From UHGV virus genome UHGV-0105864: a stretch of 17,358 nt of DNA; one strand, given 5' to 3'. Below, piece by piece: positions 50 to 16,848 of this stretch. This DNA is from a virus. The notes under the pieces are model-generated. The model searched no databases. It was not told the DNA's origin and saw nothing but the letters and a program-made list of their open reading frames with translations. The position numbers and the translations under genes were made by a program. Numbering within the stretch: position 1 is the stretch's first letter; each line of letters starts with the position of its first letter.

Positions 50-1228
50 ATGGCTATAAGCGACACAAAACTGCGTAGTATTTATGGTAAACCATATTCG
101 GGCCCACAAGAAGTGGCTGATGCCGATGGCCTCAGCGTACGAATTTCACCGAAGGGGGTCATCCAGTTCCAGTACCGCTATCGCTGGCATGGCAAGCCTA
201 ATCGACTTGGGCTTGGTCGATACCCATCCCTGTCTTTGAAGGATGCCAGACAGATCACTGCTGACTTGCGAAAGCTCTATTTCTCAGGAACGGATCCACG
301 CACTTATTTTGAAGAGAAGGTGGAGAACTCCATGACGGTCGCCCAGTGTCTCGACTACTGGTTCGACAACTACGTCTCTACAACTCTCAGAGAAAAGACC
401 CAGGCACTTTACCGATCAACGGTTATGAAGCGCATGCATGACGCCTTTCCTAATCGTCCGGCATCTTCTATCACGGTTAAGCAATGGGTTGACCTGCTTA
501 CCGAAGAAGAAAGAGATAATCCACGCCGAGCAAGGCAGGTGCTAAGTCAACTAAGATCAGCAATAAGTTGGTGCATGCGGCGTCAGTTGATAGATAGTTG
601 CGCAATTATGAGCATCCAACCAAGGGACTTCGGCTCCCGCGCTGAGGTAGGGGATCGGGTACTGTCGTATCACGAACTGGCTAAGATTTGGCTTGCTATT
701 GAAAGAAGCCGTGCGTCTACGTCAAATAAGCTACTTCATCAGATGCTTATGCTGTGGGGGGCGAGGCTCTCAGAGCTTAGGCTGGCAAAAAAGACAGAAT
801 TTGACCTGCTGGAAAACGTATGGACCGTACCGAAAGAGCATAGCAAGATGGGTAATGTTATCCGCCGTCCAATCTTCGAACAAATTAAGCCTTTCCTCGA
901 AAAGGCCATGACAACGTACAATGATGTTCTTTTCCCTGGAGAAGACATAAACAAACCGATCAGCATCGCTGCAGCCAACCGATTCGTAAATAGAATAAGG
1001 GGAGGGATGGATCTAGGTTACTGGCGAACACACGATTTCAGAAGAACGCTTGTTACACGTCTGTCCGAGATGAATGTCGAGCCTCATGTTACTGAGCGAA
1101 TGCTCGGTCATGAACTTGGCGGGATAATGTCCGTGTACAATAAACACGACTGGATAGAGGCTCAGCGCAAAGCGTATGAGCTTCACGCTGATAAATTGTT
1201 CTGGCACATCAGGAGCATTTCTGATTAA
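50..1228 (+). CDS. int: Phage integrase, tyrosine recombinase (P4-type)
   Basis: 392-aa ORF; N-terminal region and C-terminal catalytic region (HDFRRT, HELGG, final Y) resemble P4-family integrases; sits at the prophage end next to an excisionase. Confidence 0.9.
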   Translation: MAISDTKLRSIYGKPYSGPQEVADADGLSVRISPKGVIQFQYRYRWHGKPNRLGLGRYPSLSLKDARQITADLRKLYFSGTDPRTYFEEKVENSMTVAQCLDYWFDNYVSTTLREKTQALYRSTVMKRMHDAFPNRPASSITVKQWVDLLTEEERDNPRRARQVLSQLRSAISWCMRRQLIDSCAIMSIQPRDFGSRAEVGDRVLSYHELAKIWLAIERSRASTSNKLLHQMLMLWGARLSELRLAKKTEFDLLENVWTVPKEHSKMGNVIRRPIFEQIKPFLEKAMTTYNDVLFPGEDINKPISIAAANRFVNRIRGGMDLGYWRTHDFRRTLVTRLSEMNVEPHVTERMLGHELGGIMSVYNKHDWIEAQRKAYELHADKLFWHIRSISD

Positions 1229-1400
1229 CGCCACCGTTAAGAATCCACCCTTCAACAGCTTCACGAAGGTATGATTTGGGGTGGGTTCTGACTGGCTTCG
1301 GAAATCCGTGCCGTTTGGTATAGTTCCAGATTGTCTGACGTGATGAAACACCGAGCTTGTTCATCACTTCTTTCTCAGGAATCAGGCTGGTATCGGTCAT
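1209..1400 (-). CDS. xis: AlpA-family excisionase / DNA-binding regulator
   Basis: 63-aa ORF with winged-helix-like motif (LGVSSRQTIWNYTKRHGFPKP) typical of AlpA/Xis proteins; GGAG ribosome-binding site 9 nt upstream; 3' end overlaps int 3' end by 20 bp. Confidence 0.7.
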   Translation of the reverse strand: MTDTSLIPEKEVMNKLGVSSRQTIWNYTKRHGFPKPVRTHPKSYLREAVEGWILNGGVNQKCS

Positions 1401-1665: not shown

Positions 1666-1946
1666 TTCGCATTCGTTCAAATTGCGTTTACTTCTTGGCG
1701 TTCTGTTCATCCATATCGATATACCATGGGTTGCTTCCCTTGGGCATGTTTAACGACTGCTCGCGATAGTATCTGATGCGCTCCATGAAATACTCGCGTG
1801 AGTGCTCAGGTTGCTCTCATGATACCTGCTCAGTGATAACAGGTATGTTAAGGCGCTCTCTGTACTCCATGCCTGATGCTGCAAGGTCAACGTTTACCTT
1901 GTTCTGTTTTTCTTTCGATTTCTCGGCGATGTTATGCCTGGCATTG

Positions 1947-2189
1947 TCAACCCGCCTCCTTCTGAACATAACGGTTATAAATCAGTCCCTGAGGGCCACA
2001 AGGAAGCTGGATGTGCAACTCCTCTGGTTCAGAAACTATCCATTCTCCGGCCATCTCCGCTGGAGAGGTAATGATAAGTTGTTTGCTAATAAAAGGACCA
2101 CTCCTCTCAACAACAAGCTTACCATCTTCATTAATAAAAGCTTGGATGTCAGGTGTGCTTCCACACTTGGTGATGCAGCGTTTGAACAT
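1947..2189 (-). CDS. Hypothetical protein (80 aa from ATG 2189; track frame extends to 2231)
   Basis: Open frame 1947-2231; G-rich ribosome-binding site (GGGGGG) 7-9 nt upstream of ATG 2189; start choice is uncertain. Confidence 0.4.
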   Translation of the reverse strand: MFKRCITKCGSTPDIQAFINEDGKLVVERSGPFISKQLIITSPAEMAGEWIVSEPEELHIQLPCGPQGLIYNRYVQKEAG

Positions 2190-2214
2190 TTTGTGTCCCC
2201 CCATTTTATGGACG

Positions 2215-2227
2215 GGGTAATTATAAC
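2215..2227 (-). promoter_or_regulatory. Candidate extended -10 promoter (TGTTATAAT) on the - strand upstream of the 1947-2189 ORF
   Basis: Complement of 2219-2227 reads TGTTATAAT; no strong -35; AT-rich intergenic region 2232-2315. Confidence 0.3.
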
Positions 2228-2315
2228 ACATTGAAATATAGTAATATTTGACGTAGATTTCTTTTGATCTATAAGCGATTTTTTAATGCTTTTAAGTTAT
2301 AAATACTTGTTTTCA

Positions 2316-2732
2316 TCACCCATCTTGCTGCGGTGCTACTATTGAAAAGTGCTCACACCCTTTAGCCCAAATAGTTTTGATAGTTGTCCAACTGACTGGA
2401 ACCTTGATTTCGATTCTCCCGCTACAGTCACAAGTTTCGCAATCATCATCACCAAAGCATTCCGGGCAGCTTATAAACGTAGTTTCTGAAAATTCACCGG
2501 ATAGCACACCCTTAGCGCCGTTCTCAGCGGTTAGTTTCTTCGGCACTATAACCCAACCATCCGGAGTTACCGGAGAGTTGCCCGATGGCTCGTTCAACTT
2601 GCAAGTTTGGCTTACAGGTTCGGCTTCCAGTTCTGCTATGCGCTTTTTTGCTGTTTCCAGCTCGCCCAGCAGCGCCAAGACGGTAGCCGGATTGGCTGCG
2701 GCGATGAATTCAGCATTGGCCTGCTGTTCCAT
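2316..2732 (-). CDS. Ead/Ea22-like family protein, C-terminal part
   Basis: 138-aa ORF with AANPATVLALLGELE and a coiled-coil segment typical of Ea22-like proteins, plus a Cys cluster; no ribosome-binding site before ATG 2732, and the frame continues upstream to an in-frame TAA. Confidence 0.7.
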   Translation of the reverse strand: MEQQANAEFIAAANPATVLALLGELETAKKRIAELEAEPVSQTCKLNEPSGNSPVTPDGWVIVPKKLTAENGAKGVLSGEFSETTFISCPECFGDDDCETCDCSGRIEIKVPVSWTTIKTIWAKGCEHFSIVAPQQDG

Positions 2733-2756
2733 TTGGAAATCTTCATCGAAACCGCT

Positions 2757-2924
2757 TTATGGATGCGCTCCTTCAATTCTGCAAATGGGAATATATCCAG
2801 CAACTTCACGATGAATTAGCGCATCATCACCATCAAATCGGCTCTCTCCATATTCGAGCGACCACTCACCACACGTTGCTTTCTCTGCTTTTTCACGCAG
2901 TACCTGATAGTCAATCTTGTTCAC
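2757..2924 (-). CDS. Probable N-terminal part of the same Ea22-like gene (55 aa), separated by an in-frame TAA
   Basis: GTG start at 2924 with AAGGAGG 6 nt upstream; same reading frame as 2316-2732; TAA at 2757-2759. Confidence 0.45.
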   Translation of the reverse strand: MNKIDYQVLREKAEKATCGEWSLEYGESRFDGDDALIHREVAGYIPICRIEGAHP

Positions 2925-3228
2925 TGGTTGCCTCCTTTGCTGGGCTTTCTAGCTTCTGAGTGGTTGTATCAAACTCAAACAACTTAACCACGTCATCAAA
3001 CAGGACATAATCGCCATCAGAATCTTCAGTCATGTCAGCGCCACAATCCTGACCGCACGAGTCACATCCATCCATATCAAGCTCGTATCGCTTCAGGTTT
3101 GCGATATTTGATAAATTCAGCGCCAGTACAGCCAGGTCATAAACCTCTTCGGCGGTATACCCTGCACCATGCCCATACATTTCAATGCGGGATATGATTT
3201 CTTCTACCCGTTGTTTTGTGATCGTCAT
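2911..3228 (-). CDS. Hypothetical acidic protein (105 aa) with a CxxC-containing, Asp/Glu-rich C-terminus
   Basis: ORF with GGGAGGTG ribosome-binding site; start overlaps upstream stop (ATGA); about 23% acidic residues. Confidence 0.6.
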   Translation of the reverse strand: MTITKQRVEEIISRIEMYGHGAGYTAEEVYDLAVLALNLSNIANLKRYELDMDGCDSCGQDCGADMTEDSDGDYVLFDDVVKLFEFDTTTQKLESPAKEATSEQD

Positions 3229-3686
3229 TTTTGCTCACCTCCCTGTTCTTCCAGAAAAATACGCATAGCCTCAAGCATCTCTTCGGTGTCATACGGAGAC
3301 AGCTTGTCACGCAGGATGTGTTCAATGCTGTTAATGAACTTTCGGATTGCTTTGCGTTCAATTTCAGTCAGGAAAGCATCGGTGGCTGGGGTGTCTGATT
3401 GCAGAGACTTTGCGCGATAGTCATTCCACCCTCTTGCATACATGGGATTAACTTGCACTCCATCTTTTACGCAATATGCCTGCCCTCCACGGTTGATAAC
3501 CTTGATTTCGTCCATAGCGCCAGACTTCAGCCCCGCATTCTCCGCTGCCAGCGCCGCGTACTTGGCCTCCGCTTCAGCAAATTTACGCACCAGATATTCA
3601 GCGTTTGTTTCGTTAACCTTTAAATCTCGTGGGATGCATTTACCTTTCAGAAATCCATCCATCTCAATTAGTGACATTTGTTTCAT
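3225..3686 (-). CDS. Hypothetical phage protein (153 aa)
   Basis: ORF in the translationally coupled early-left operon; start overlaps upstream stop. Confidence 0.6.
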
Positions 3687-4189: not shown

Positions 4190-4672
4190 TTATTTGATAA
4201 GAAGTGAAGGTTTCCCAACTTTGAGTTTAGCGCCGGGAATATTTATTCCTGCTTTTAGTTGGTGTTTGATTGCCAGTTTGTCGGCTTTAATTGTCGTTTC
4301 AAACTCAACGTATTCAGGAGGAAGGGCGCTTGAGTCGATTATTTCTACAATTTCTGACGGTTTGCGGATTGTTACCTGGTGAATACCTGCTCGAATATTT
4401 TTCTTGCCAGCCATTTCAAGCGATGACGCTATATATGATTTGATGCTGTCAATCTTATTTTGAATTACTGCAGCTCGCTCATTCAGTGACTTTGCCTCTT
4501 CCTTGAGGCGTTCGGCATAACCAGATTCATTTTTAATGACGGAAAGAAGTTGCTCTATTTTATCGGTAAATTCTCCTTCCATGCCTTCTATTGTGTCAGC
4601 AATCATCTCTGGTTCTAAATCTGAATCCATCAATTTTGCGTATTCATTGGCAATTTCATACAGTTTGCTCAC
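4190..4672 (-). CDS. Gp157-like protein (siphovirus Gp157 family, tentative), RecT-associated
   Basis: About 160 aa, immediately downstream of recT with overlap; likely GTG start at 4672 with GGAGG 6 nt upstream (track TTG at 4678 is too close to the ribosome-binding site); family assignment is from recall. Confidence 0.55.
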   Translation of the reverse strand: MSKLYEIANEYAKLMDSDLEPEMIADTIEGMEGEFTDKIEQLLSVIKNESGYAERLKEEAKSLNERAAVIQNKIDSIKSYIASSLEMAGKKNIRAGIHQVTIRKPSEIVEIIDSSALPPEYVEFETTIKADKLAIKHQLKAGINIPGAKLKVGKPSLLIK

Positions 4673-5567
4673 TGGCAACCTCCAGTTTCGCTTTGCATTC
4701 TGCGTAAATGGCTTGTACGTTCTGCTGCAATTTCATCCCAGATGTCAGGCGATATGCTTCTGCAAAATATCGCTTCAAATCATCCATGTTTTCAGCCTGA
4801 GCCATTTCATCACAAAGAAGTTGTGCTTTATCCGTTATTTCCTGCTGGCGTTTCCGTTCATCTTCGCGGATATCTTCCTCTGATTTGTGCGGCATAACTG
4901 GTTCAGTCCACACACCTTCTTCTTCGTTTAGTACGTGAATAGCACTATCAAGACGTGATGCCTTAGGCCAATACTTGCTTGCACGCTTTACGACCGTCTT
5001 TCGCGCCATCTCATTCCAGTGATTTACCCATGGTCCTTTATCGCTGAATGCTGCCTTGCTTGTTTTCCTTACAGCCTCAATTTCAGCCAGACTCATCTCT
5101 TCCGTTAGATAATCACCTGCTGGCGTCTTAACTGTGCAGTAAACGCCAACAATATCACCACGATCACCGAAGGCGTTGTATTTATGGGTTGGTGCTTTAT
5201 CAAGCCCGTTTGACTCATAGGTATCGTTAGCATGAACAAGTTTTGCCTGACCCCATGAGATAACACCAGACTCCATTGCAATATGGAGCAATCCCATATA
5301 ACTGATATCAAGGCACACCATGCCGTCGCGCGGAACCAGATAAGCCAGTTTGCTAGCCGGGTTTAAGGTGATACCGATCGCCGCAACATTGATGATGGCG
5401 TTCTGTGCGCTGGTTGGATTTGCCAGTGCTGTTTTAGCCAGGTAATCATTTTTCTGGAAATACTGAATTGCAAACTGGCTTTCCTTAGCCCATGTCACCG
5501 TCTGTTCAGTCAATGCTCCGCAGAATAACTGCTCTTGCTGTTTAACGAATTCAACGATATTGCTCAT
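4656..5567 (-). CDS. recT: RecT-family single-strand annealing recombinase
   Basis: 303-aa ORF; GPWVNHWNEMARKTVVKRASKYWP matches the conserved RecT region; GGAG ribosome-binding site; start overlaps upstream stop. Confidence 0.85.
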   Translation of the reverse strand: MSNIVEFVKQQEQLFCGALTEQTVTWAKESQFAIQYFQKNDYLAKTALANPTSAQNAIINVAAIGITLNPASKLAYLVPRDGMVCLDISYMGLLHIAMESGVISWGQAKLVHANDTYESNGLDKAPTHKYNAFGDRGDIVGVYCTVKTPAGDYLTEEMSLAEIEAVRKTSKAAFSDKGPWVNHWNEMARKTVVKRASKYWPKASRLDSAIHVLNEEEGVWTEPVMPHKSEEDIREDERKRQQEITDKAQLLCDEMAQAENMDDLKRYFAEAYRLTSGMKLQQNVQAIYAECKAKLEVASEQTV

Positions 5568-6615: not shown

Positions 6616-6643
6616 CCAAAAATAAAGGCCGACTATGAGGCCT
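6616..6643 (-). terminator. Intrinsic terminator (AGGCC-loop-GGCCT then UUUAUUUUUGG) on the - strand, at the end of the 6633-7256 gene
   Basis: Hairpin 6626-6643 overlapping the stop codon; T-rich run on the - strand (complement of 6616-6626). Confidence 0.55.
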
Positions 6644-7256
6644 CGGAAGGAAGTCCAATCATCTTATTCAAATCTTCTACCCGTAAAGCAGGAAGTGCTG
6701 TACTTGCTTTATCTGCTTCTTTTGGTAGCAACTCTTTGCTTTCAGGCCAAACCTCAATAAGTCGCTTAACTGTTGTGACTGAGTTTAAAGCAGCCCATAC
6801 ATTTGATTCGATATCCTTTTTCTTTGCTTCAAGTTTTTGTTGTAATGAGCAGATTTCATCAAACCTTTTTGTTATTTCGTGCTCTGCGTCAAACATGCAT
6901 TTATCTTTTATCGGAGTAGGGAGAAATATATCTTCGCCGTTGCCGTCTTTCCCATATGAATGCCATCCAACCCTTCTGCCAGATACAGTCAGATAAATTG
7001 AAGTAGAACGAAAATCGTATGAGTAAAATGAACATCCCATCTTTCCAAGTTCTTCACTTATAGCTACCAACTTGGATGATAACTGATCCACTTCCTCAGT
7101 TTTCTTTTTACCGCCAAACGCAATAACTCTGGCGTCAAGTGCAAGCTGGTTCTTTAACTTTGTTACTTCTTCAAGCTCAGTGAAAACCCCAGACTTAATT
7201 AAAGCGTTACGAGCGATTTCCTCTTTCATTCTCGTAGTTAAGCGGATTGATGACAT
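6633..7256 (-). CDS. Hypothetical protein (207 aa from ATG 7256), terminator-flanked moron-like gene at the lambda sieB/ea10 position
   Basis: Long ORF; GAGAGG ribosome-binding site 8 nt upstream of ATG 7256 (track start at 7271 is a TTG); hydrophilic with coiled-coil-like stretches; no recognised domain. Confidence 0.65.
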   Translation of the reverse strand: MSSIRLTTRMKEEIARNALIKSGVFTELEEVTKLKNQLALDARVIAFGGKKKTEEVDQLSSKLVAISEELGKMGCSFYSYDFRSTSIYLTVSGRRVGWHSYGKDGNGEDIFLPTPIKDKCMFDAEHEITKRFDEICSLQQKLEAKKKDIESNVWAALNSVTTVKRLIEVWPESKELLPKEADKASTALPALRVEDLNKMIGLPSEAS

Positions 7257-7269
7257 ATTAATTCCTCTC

Positions 7270-15363: not shown

Positions 15364-15548
15364 ACGCCACAATTCAAACGATACCAGAGCTTCTTATCCA
15401 GACACGAGGCAATCAGACCGAAGTGGCAAGGATGCTTTCCTGCGCAAGAGGAACAGTGCTCAAGTACAACCGAGACAGCAAAGGCGAGCGTCACGTAATA
15501 GTTAACGGCGTCCTGATGGTCAAACAGGGAAAGAGGGGAAGACGATGA
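15360..15548 (+). CDS. ninH: NinH-like DNA-binding protein
   Basis: 62-aa ORF; TIPELLIQTRGNQTEVARMLSCARGTVLKY resembles lambda NinH (KTIPDMLVEAYGNQTEVARRLKCSRGTVRKY). Confidence 0.7.
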   Translation: MNATIQTIPELLIQTRGNQTEVARMLSCARGTVLKYNRDSKGERHVIVNGVLMVKQGKRGRR

Positions 15549-16063
15549 GCATAAGAGAACTAAACCTCACCAAAGAACAGCATGAGTGGCTGAATGGCTG
15601 GCTTGAACTGTGGGGCGCATGGGTTTATTCAGGTCGTCTGGAAAAGCGCATGAGCAGCGTAATAGCGAAGTTCATGGAGAGCGTAGAGCCGGGAAGAGTT
15701 ATGACAAGGCCAATGTGCAATGATGATGATGGAATGTTGATTTCTCAGGTCGTCGATTCCGTCATGTGCATTGACAAGAAAGCCTTTGGCATCCTCCTCA
15801 GCTACTACGCTCATGGTTCATCTAAGCGAGCAATTGCATCCTACTATCACGCGACTGCAAAGCCACGCAAGATGTGTGGACGTGGTGGCGAGGGATGGAG
15901 AAAACCTTCACTGGCAACCTGTAGAAACGAAATTGACGACATCCTGAAAGCGTCGTTATTTGTTTTGTACCAGCCAATGCAAAATGCTTTTAAAATGCGT
16001 AAACGTGTTGAGAAAGTTAAGCATGTTGCTGTTAAAAGCCTTGACATGCAATTATCCATTTAG
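15545..16063 (+). CDS. Q: Putative late-gene antiterminator Q (not lambda-Q type)
   Basis: 172-aa ORF in the Q position (after ninH, immediately before a pR'-like promoter, terminator, tRNAs and S/R); the sequence itself was not recognised, so the call is positional. Confidence 0.5.
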   Translation: MSIRELNLTKEQHEWLNGWLELWGAWVYSGRLEKRMSSVIAKFMESVEPGRVMTRPMCNDDDGMLISQVVDSVMCIDKKAFGILLSYYAHGSSKRAIASYYHATAKPRKMCGRGGEGWRKPSLATCRNEIDDILKASLFVLYQPMQNAFKMRKRVEKVKHVAVKSLDMQLSI

Positions 16064-16126: not shown

Positions 16127-16201
16127 GGGTCAGTCGTATAAAGGTCATTACGGAAGGCTGTTAACCTTCTTATCGTGGTTCGAGCCCACGCTGTCCCGCC
16201 A
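16127..16201 (+). tRNA. Phage-encoded tRNA, anticodon GUU by manual fold (tRNA-Asn-like), with acceptor and D-stem mismatches
   Basis: Cloverleaf read by hand: acceptor GGGTCAG/CTGTCCC (one U-U mismatch), anticodon stem GAAGG/CCTTC with loop CTGTTAA, T-arm CGTGG-TTCGAGC-CCACG, 3' G-CCA encoded. Confidence 0.55.
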
Positions 16202-16206
16202 AACAT

Positions 16207-16282
16207 GCTGGTTTAGCTCCAATGGTAGAGCAGTCGCCTTGTAAGCGAATGGGTAGCGGTTCAAGTCCGTTAACCAGCACCA
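16207..16282 (+). tRNA. Phage-encoded tRNA, anticodon UGU by manual fold (tRNA-Thr-like)
   Basis: Acceptor GCTGGTT/AACCAGC, D-stem GCTC/GAGC, anticodon loop CTTGTAA, T-arm AGCGG-TTCAAGT-CCGTT (one G-U pair), discriminator A plus CCA encoded. Confidence 0.6.
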
Positions 16283-16524: not shown

Positions 16525-16848
16525 ATGAAGATGCCAGAAAAACATGACCTGTTAGCCGCCATTCTCGCGGCAAAGGAACAAGGCATCGGGGCAATCCTTG
16601 CGTTTGCAATGGCGTACCTTCGCGGCAGATATAATGGCGGTGCGTTTACAAAAACAGTAATCGACGCAACGATGTGCGCCATTATCGCCTGGTTCATTCG
16701 TGACCTTCTCGACTTCGCCGGACTAAGTAGCAATCTCGCTTATATAACAAGCGTGTTCATCGGCTACATCGGTACTGACTCGATTGGTTCGCTTATCAAA
16801 CGCTTCGCTGCTAAAAAAGCCGGAGTAGAAGATGGTGGAAATCAATAA
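16525..16848 (+). CDS. S: Holin S (lambda S107/S105 dual-start holin/antiholin)
   Basis: 107-aa [44 protein letters not shown]... essentially identical to lambda S. Confidence 0.95.

Follow-up and report, generated by a model that had tools for sequence, protein, structure and literature searches.

The stretch of DNA analyzed here (the window; 17,358 nt of UHGV virus genome UHGV-0105864) covers, judged by its gene content and order, the left and central portions of a lambdoid prophage (Table 1). The prophage adjoins sbcB in a matching contig (L004) and in Escherichia coli JKHS016. When the whole window was compared with complete E. coli genomes, the best place covered 71% of it, as expected because the prophage is mosaic. 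RecT, Gp157, the Ea22-like gene, and the xis-like ORF follow one another in this order on the minus strand, with int on the plus strand. Since the Ea22-like gene is located between the recombination genes and xis, it lies in the counterpart of the lambda exo−xis region. The Nmad5 gene is also found within the early-left region, upstream of the recombination genes.

Table 1. Features of the window, in window coordinates, beginning with the interrupted Ead/Ea22-like gene and its parts
Feature	Position	Strand	Basis or remark
Whole Ead/Ea22-like gene, interrupted	2316..2924	-	Translation; 203 codon positions, both stops (internal TAA, terminal TGA) counted
Ribosome-binding site AAGGAGG	2937-2931	-	Within the 3' end of the upstream ORF; 6-nt spacer to GTG
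Start codon GTG	2924-2922	-	Direct reading
N-terminal fragment, 55 codons	2760..2924	-	ORF list; Pfam Ead_Ea22 positions 2-29; phrog_60 positions 1-49
Premature TAA at codon 56	2759-2757	-	Alignments with intact alleles
Eight sense codons SGFDEDFQ, from the stop to ATG 2732	2756-2733	-	Internal codons 57-64 of intact alleles
Downstream fragment, 138 codons plus TGA	2316..2732	-	ORF list; Pfam Ead_Ea22 positions 54-89
Upstream 105-codon gene	2911-3228	-	phrog_3126
Integrase	50-1228	+	
AlpA/Xis-like ORF	1209-1400	-	
Theta-like gene	1688-1969	-	In-frame TGA at 1817-1819
153-aa ORF	3225-3686	-	
Gp157-like	4190-4678	-	
RecT	4656-5567	-	
Nmad5 protein	6633-7271	-	Full Pfam profile (nucleotide modification associated domain 5), 238.9 bits
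CI-like repressor	8394-9044	-	
CII	9332-9712		
O-like	10010-10957		
DnaB-like helicase	10954-12330		
NinB	13335-13745		
Q antiterminator	15545-16063		
tRNA-Asn (GTT) and tRNA-Thr (TGT)	16127-16282	+	Between Q and holin
Holin	16525-16848		

A first-pass annotation of the window had described a 55-residue ORF that starts at GTG 2924 behind a strong AAGGAGG site, and reading of the minus strand confirmed every element of it. The 55 sense codons from this GTG encode MNKIDYQVLREKAEKATCGEWSLEYGESRFDGDDALIHREVAGYIPICRIEGAHP, and the AAGGAGG is identical in the intact alleles with which it was aligned. The GTG overlaps the 3' end of the upstream 105-codon ORF by 14 nt, and the same overlap is annotated in two related loci (L001 and L003), which suggests translational coupling between the two genes. 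The 138-residue ORF begins with an ATG at 2732-2730 and ends with a TGA at 2318-2316. GTG, TAA, ATG, and TGA all lie in one frame, so that the two ORFs are indeed separated only by the TAA and eight sense codons, as had been claimed. These codons (S57 to Q64) are invariant or nearly so across homologues, and the ATG corresponds to the internal Met65 of the intact protein. Direct reading likewise agreed with the earlier remark that ATG 2732 has no ribosome-binding site, as no 4-mer of the Shine-Dalgarno core is present in the 20 nt before it. A consensus scan of the minus strand from 2100 to 3300 found no promoter-like sites. Efficient translation is expected only of the N-terminal 55-codon fragment; the 138-codon fragment holds the predicted coiled-coil segment and a variable, Cys-rich C-terminal module.

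Both ORFs belong to a single Pfam domain, Ead_Ea22 (PF13935), of which they match successive parts, and their juxtaposition is not due to chance. The 55-residue ORF scores 31.2 bits and the 138-residue ORF 41.2 bits over their respective parts of the profile, while the joined protein, with X at the stop, matches positions 2 to 89 in a single stretch with 74.4 bits (E = 1.7e-20). All three are above the curated gathering score of 27 bits. The name Ea22-like, originally given to the 138-residue ORF, is therefore correct but not exclusive to it, since by the Pfam match the 55-residue half is Ea22-like as well. Among the PHROGs, phrog_60 spans residues 1 to 201 of the intact protein and each fragment matches its own part of it; some other families match only the 66 to 103 segment, at various profile positions.

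Full-length homologues align contiguously across the junction. A search of a collection of 5.8 billion proteins with the intact protein returned 7,676 homologues, the best 120 of which cover 98 to 100% of the query and span the junction, each in one protein of 201 to 330 aa. The N-terminal segment was neither absent from the relatives nor always a separate ORF: of the 106 listed IMG/VR copies that lie wholly inside their locus, 104 have at least 55 open codons in frame before codon 56. Together with the joined Pfam match, these alignments support the initial proposal of one gene of about 202 residues. On this comparative evidence, 2316-2924 is one 202-codon accessory gene with a rare broken allele, not two genes.

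Intact alleles of the gene were readily found. When the 645-nt region was searched by megablast in 5,426 complete E. coli genomes, 19 near-full-length matches were obtained, of which the best is E. coli cM2a (99.2%) and the third is JKHS016 (97.1%). Both strains contain a single 609-nt CDS of 202 aa with the same GTG start, annotated as ead/Ea22-like family protein, and in the alignment GAA is opposite the window's TAA. Intact 609-nt alleles occupy the same position in loci L001, L003, and L010 to L014, and codon 56 is GAA in all of them. On the coding strand of the window, base 2759 is T (A on the plus strand) instead of the G of the intact alleles, a change that turns GAA (Glu) into TAA. One intact protein (P0021) differs from the joined window protein only by E56 (201/202 residues identical). 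Its gene, on Logan contig SRR20950908_7834 (L010), is identical to that of the window at 608 of 609 nt, the sole difference being G versus T at position 166, and no other mismatch is present from ~1.5 kb upstream of the GTG to ~100 nt past the stop. P0021, WP_223666337.1 of cM2a, and WP_341858352.1 of JKHS016 are encoded at the same locus as the window gene, between the 105-aa and 80-aa genes of a lambdoid prophage, with the same GTG and ribosome-binding site; they differ from it by having GAA (Glu) and one 202-aa product.

The residue at codon 56 is Glu in all 128 fetched proteins with the flanking motif, and an IMG/VR pattern scan in which this codon was left free found GAA at 121 of 121 sites among the matches listed. 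As judged from these alignments, the lesion is a single recent G-to-T transversion at 2759 that hit the conserved Glu56 codon. The intact allele is already represented in public databases, with RefSeq protein accessions, and it belongs to a known family. The other differences of the window gene from cM2a are G167C, T178S, and Y192H, and P0021 carries all three of the window's residues. We considered G167C and Y192H as possible decay after inactivation and rejected this idea because both are polymorphic in the database set (of ~112 homologous proteins, 26 have C167 and 35 have H192) and are carried by the intact P0021; they are standing polymorphisms.

The TAA allele is rare. The window's exact 61-mer with TAA is missing from all 801 complete E. 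coli genomes in which the site is present (best match 98.4%, one mismatch), and an exact scan of the JGI metagenomes gave no match to the TAA 34-mer. The allele is present in ~12 public human-gut and other contigs (ENA/Logan) from several run accessions and different assemblers (ERR1190903, ERR1190904, ERZ27235275, ERZ1303713, ERZ28535911, ERZ27255846, and SRR14610697), one of which, ERZ28535911, has ~60x coverage according to the contig name. The exact 55-aa product occurs on 10 to 12 contigs and the exact 138-aa product on 7 to 8, with TAA in all fetched loci, and gene callers annotated the two ORFs as two genes in public contigs. ERR1190903 and ERR1190904 belong to PRJEB12124 (samples SAMEA3708829 and SAMEA3708830), a study of drug treatment in patients with type 2 diabetes (PMC5702614); a donor is possibly shared by some samples. 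The backgrounds of the allele are similar, though not all identical. L005 and L019 are identical to the window, and L004, L007, and L008 have one SNP at ~2210. Besides a further change within the gene (nt 587, V196A), L017 shows seven more mismatches over the 2,449 nt that it shares with the window. L018 has 10 mismatches in a 643-nt stretch that takes in the upstream gene, and it carries a different gene farther upstream. L006 was considered as a second genomic context of the allele and rejected, as BLAST revealed the same sequence with a small indel-shifted segment.

The first-pass annotation had allowed for either a nonsense codon or an error. An error, with GAA as the true sequence and the gene intact, would fit the single-base difference from an intact allele, and G-to-T substitution is a known kind of library artefact; the window also seems to derive from a metagenome assembly. 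However, the identical TAA appears in separately assembled contigs from seven accessions, produced by different assemblers and with slightly different flanks. This recurrence of TAA across runs, with backgrounds that differ slightly, makes an isolated sequencing error unlikely, and we regard an intact gene behind the TAA as very improbable. A real mutation is much better supported, the base call resting on agreement between assemblies, some of which may stem from one patient or cohort (PRJEB12124). As the TAA allele occurs on slightly different haplotypes (L017 and L018), it has persisted and recombined, which is also compatible with a split form that is tolerated or even functional.

Breaks of the same gene at other sites were found in relatives. 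E. coli Z1323HEC0423, the second-best megablast match (L002, 3037-3644), has GAA at codon 56 and a 1-nt deletion 27 nt upstream of this codon, and its gene is annotated as two ead/Ea22-like family protein CDSs. Two of the 106 complete IMG/VR copies among the matches listed (L121 and L136) carry 1-nt frameshifts in the N-terminal part. Like the window gene, these three copies are split by a single lesion in the N-terminal third, but their lesions are 1-nt frameshifts at other positions, whereas that of the window is a TAA substitution. The independent frameshifts in relatives fit sporadic decay of a dispensable gene, which is typical here, and the window gene shows no departure from ordinary prophage gene decay.

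In the alignment of homologues, residues 1 to 102 are conserved and the C termini then diverge. Because the DNA similarity of most relatives to the gene stops at ~nt 300 to 408 of the query, the conserved N-terminal/helical part appears to mark a mosaic recombination boundary, beyond which C-terminal modules (DUF550, DUF551, and others) are exchangeable. The homologous stretch of phage Sf6 (19334-19874; H47/H48) is annotated as bsq3, a boundary sequence. The low-confidence AlphaFold2 model of the intact protein contains helices at residues 61 to 76 and 79 to 101, although this model, made with a 26-sequence alignment (mean pLDDT 38.5, pTM 0.20), is too poor to place domain boundaries. A sequence search of solved structures gave only a chance-level match to a DNA ligase (E = 0.81). 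The C-terminal module has a Cys-rich CPEC-x7-CETCD(G/C)SG sequence that resembles the CxxCxGxG zinc-binding motif, and it has no Pfam match. The first Gly of the Cys-rich motif is polymorphic (G in 86 homologues, C in 26); at codon 167 of the window gene (2424-2426, minus strand), Cys is reached via two base changes, from GGC to TGT.

Close known counterparts are P22 Ead, HK620 HkaG, Sf6 gp21, and ST104 ORF8, which share the family (PF13935) and the early-left accessory location with the window gene. The P22, HK620, Sf6, and ST104 genes have 90 to 96% DNA identity over the first ~300 to 400 nt, with ~100 conserved N-terminal residues followed by variable, mosaic C-terminal modules. The window gene differs from them in its C-terminal module, which is Cys-rich, and in being interrupted. 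Lambda Ea22 (NP_040612.1) belongs to the same Pfam family and is likewise encoded between the recombination genes and xis. Its pairwise alignment with the joined protein (28% identity over 147 residues, with 35% gaps; E = 1e-5) is confined to the N-terminal/helical part. Lambda Ea22 is described as having a coiled coil between a short N-terminal domain and a C-terminal domain (PMC10834534); the C-terminal domain has no match in the joined protein and is unrelated to its C terminus. Deletion of ea22, an early gene of lambda and phi24B, moves development away from lysogeny (PMC7093339), and a pro-lysogenic effect and tetramerization are known for lambda and phi24B only (PMC7093339, PMC10834534). 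As the joined protein is only distantly related to lambda Ea22, its function can be guessed by analogy only, and that of lambda Ea22 would not be transferable with confidence to the window gene.

The locus very probably contains one Ead/Ea22-like gene in the early-left operon of a lambdoid prophage by sbcB, broken by a recent G-to-T change of GAA to TAA. Ribosomes that start at GTG 2924 behind the AAGGAGG would terminate after 55 residues and release an N-terminal stub. Since this stub would lack both the predicted coiled-coil/helical segment (residues ~61 to 101) and the Cys-rich C-terminal module, we infer that the TAA allele is null or strongly hypomorphic. Reinitiation after nonsense codons occurs in E. 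coli, and weak reinitiation at ATG 2732, which lies 24 nt beyond the stop, is possible; a little of the 138-residue C-terminal part could be made in this way. The operon genes are repressed in a lysogen, and genes of the ea22 type modulate the lysis−lysogeny decision of lambda and Stx phages but are dispensable (PMC7093339). Because the operon is silent in a lysogen and genes of this type are dispensable, the mutation is probably neutral for the host and persists by hitch-hiking with the prophage.

Several features could also be reconciled with a tolerated gene fission, in which the 55-aa stub and a 138-aa protein reinitiated at Met65, together or separately, keep the function of the gene. The stop separates the short N-terminal segment from the predicted coiled-coil segment, the ATG follows it closely, and 121 of 130 homologues have Met65. 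Some PHROG families match, as described above, only the segment downstream of the break, and the C-terminal domain of lambda Ea22 is described as folding on its own (PMC10834534). In addition, several slightly different backgrounds carry the TAA allele, so that it is not being quickly purged; yet a neutral mutation in a prophage gene under repression would be equally expected to persist. The other nine homologues have I, T, or R at position 65, which is therefore not conserved as a start, and ATG 2732 is without a ribosome-binding site. The split form is absent from the 801 E. coli genomes, the 121 listed IMG/VR sites, and the JGI metagenomes, and the structure model, with its low mean pLDDT, is uninformative on this point. 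We therefore consider fission with retained function unlikely, although it is the one rival reading that keeps some weight. That the TAA allele is not dead, with reinitiation yielding a free N-terminal peptide and a coiled-coil/C-terminal protein of retained or altered activity, is in our judgment quite unlikely; if true, such activity would explain the presence of the allele on several prophage backgrounds.

Programmed readthrough or suppression of the stop, which would give the full-length protein, has nothing specific in its favor other than a stop in frame and an open frame downstream. A programmed signal would have to be conserved, but the stop is shared by no relative (801 genomes, 128 proteins, and 121 listed IMG/VR sites), and the window encodes no suppressor tRNA, its only tRNAs being Asn-GTT and Thr-TGT. 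TAA is moreover a tight stop, the least leaky in E. coli. As the stop is not conserved and is tight, readthrough is excluded in practice, and we give it almost no chance.

With a single gene broken by a nonsense mutation as the preferred reading, the 55-aa and 138-aa ORFs should be merged in the annotation into one Ead/Ea22-like pseudogene (internal stop) or nonsense allele. The finding is an ordinary one, mainly an annotation correction, and raises no new biological question. It adds a data point to the observation that the accessory genes between recombination genes and xis in lambdoid prophages are repeatedly broken by single lesions, the neighboring theta-like gene included. The rare T at 2759 could mark this prophage lineage.

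The 153-aa ORF is named hNH endonuclease in RefSeq relatives (WP_115417259.1), and it has no Pfam match at E ≤ 1. It matches phrog_614 and positions 111 to 202 of phrog_368, and positions 1 to 90 of phrog_368 match the Ea22-like N terminus. This shared phrog_368 match suggests module shuffling in this region and makes the product name doubtful.

The theta-like gene (HolE/P1 Hot-like DNA polymerase III theta) belongs to the same operon as the Ea22-like gene and has an in-frame TGA. When joined across it, the protein matches positions 2 to 67 of 70 of Pfam DNA_pol3_theta with 98.9 bits, and the TGA aligns with an Arg in P1 Hot and in the theta of Klebsiella phage KO-TP1. Unlike the TAA of the Ea22-like gene, this TGA is the common allele: of the 90 complete E. 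coli genomes that contain the site, 72 have the exact 61-mer, and TGA is found in 24 of 24 sites in IMG/VR. No close copies of the gene were found in cultured phage records. RefSeq flags the gene as a pseudogene, with an internal stop in four of five records checked and a frameshift in cM2a. The theta-like gene may be an old, fixed pseudogene or, instead, a leaky-TGA or two-part gene.
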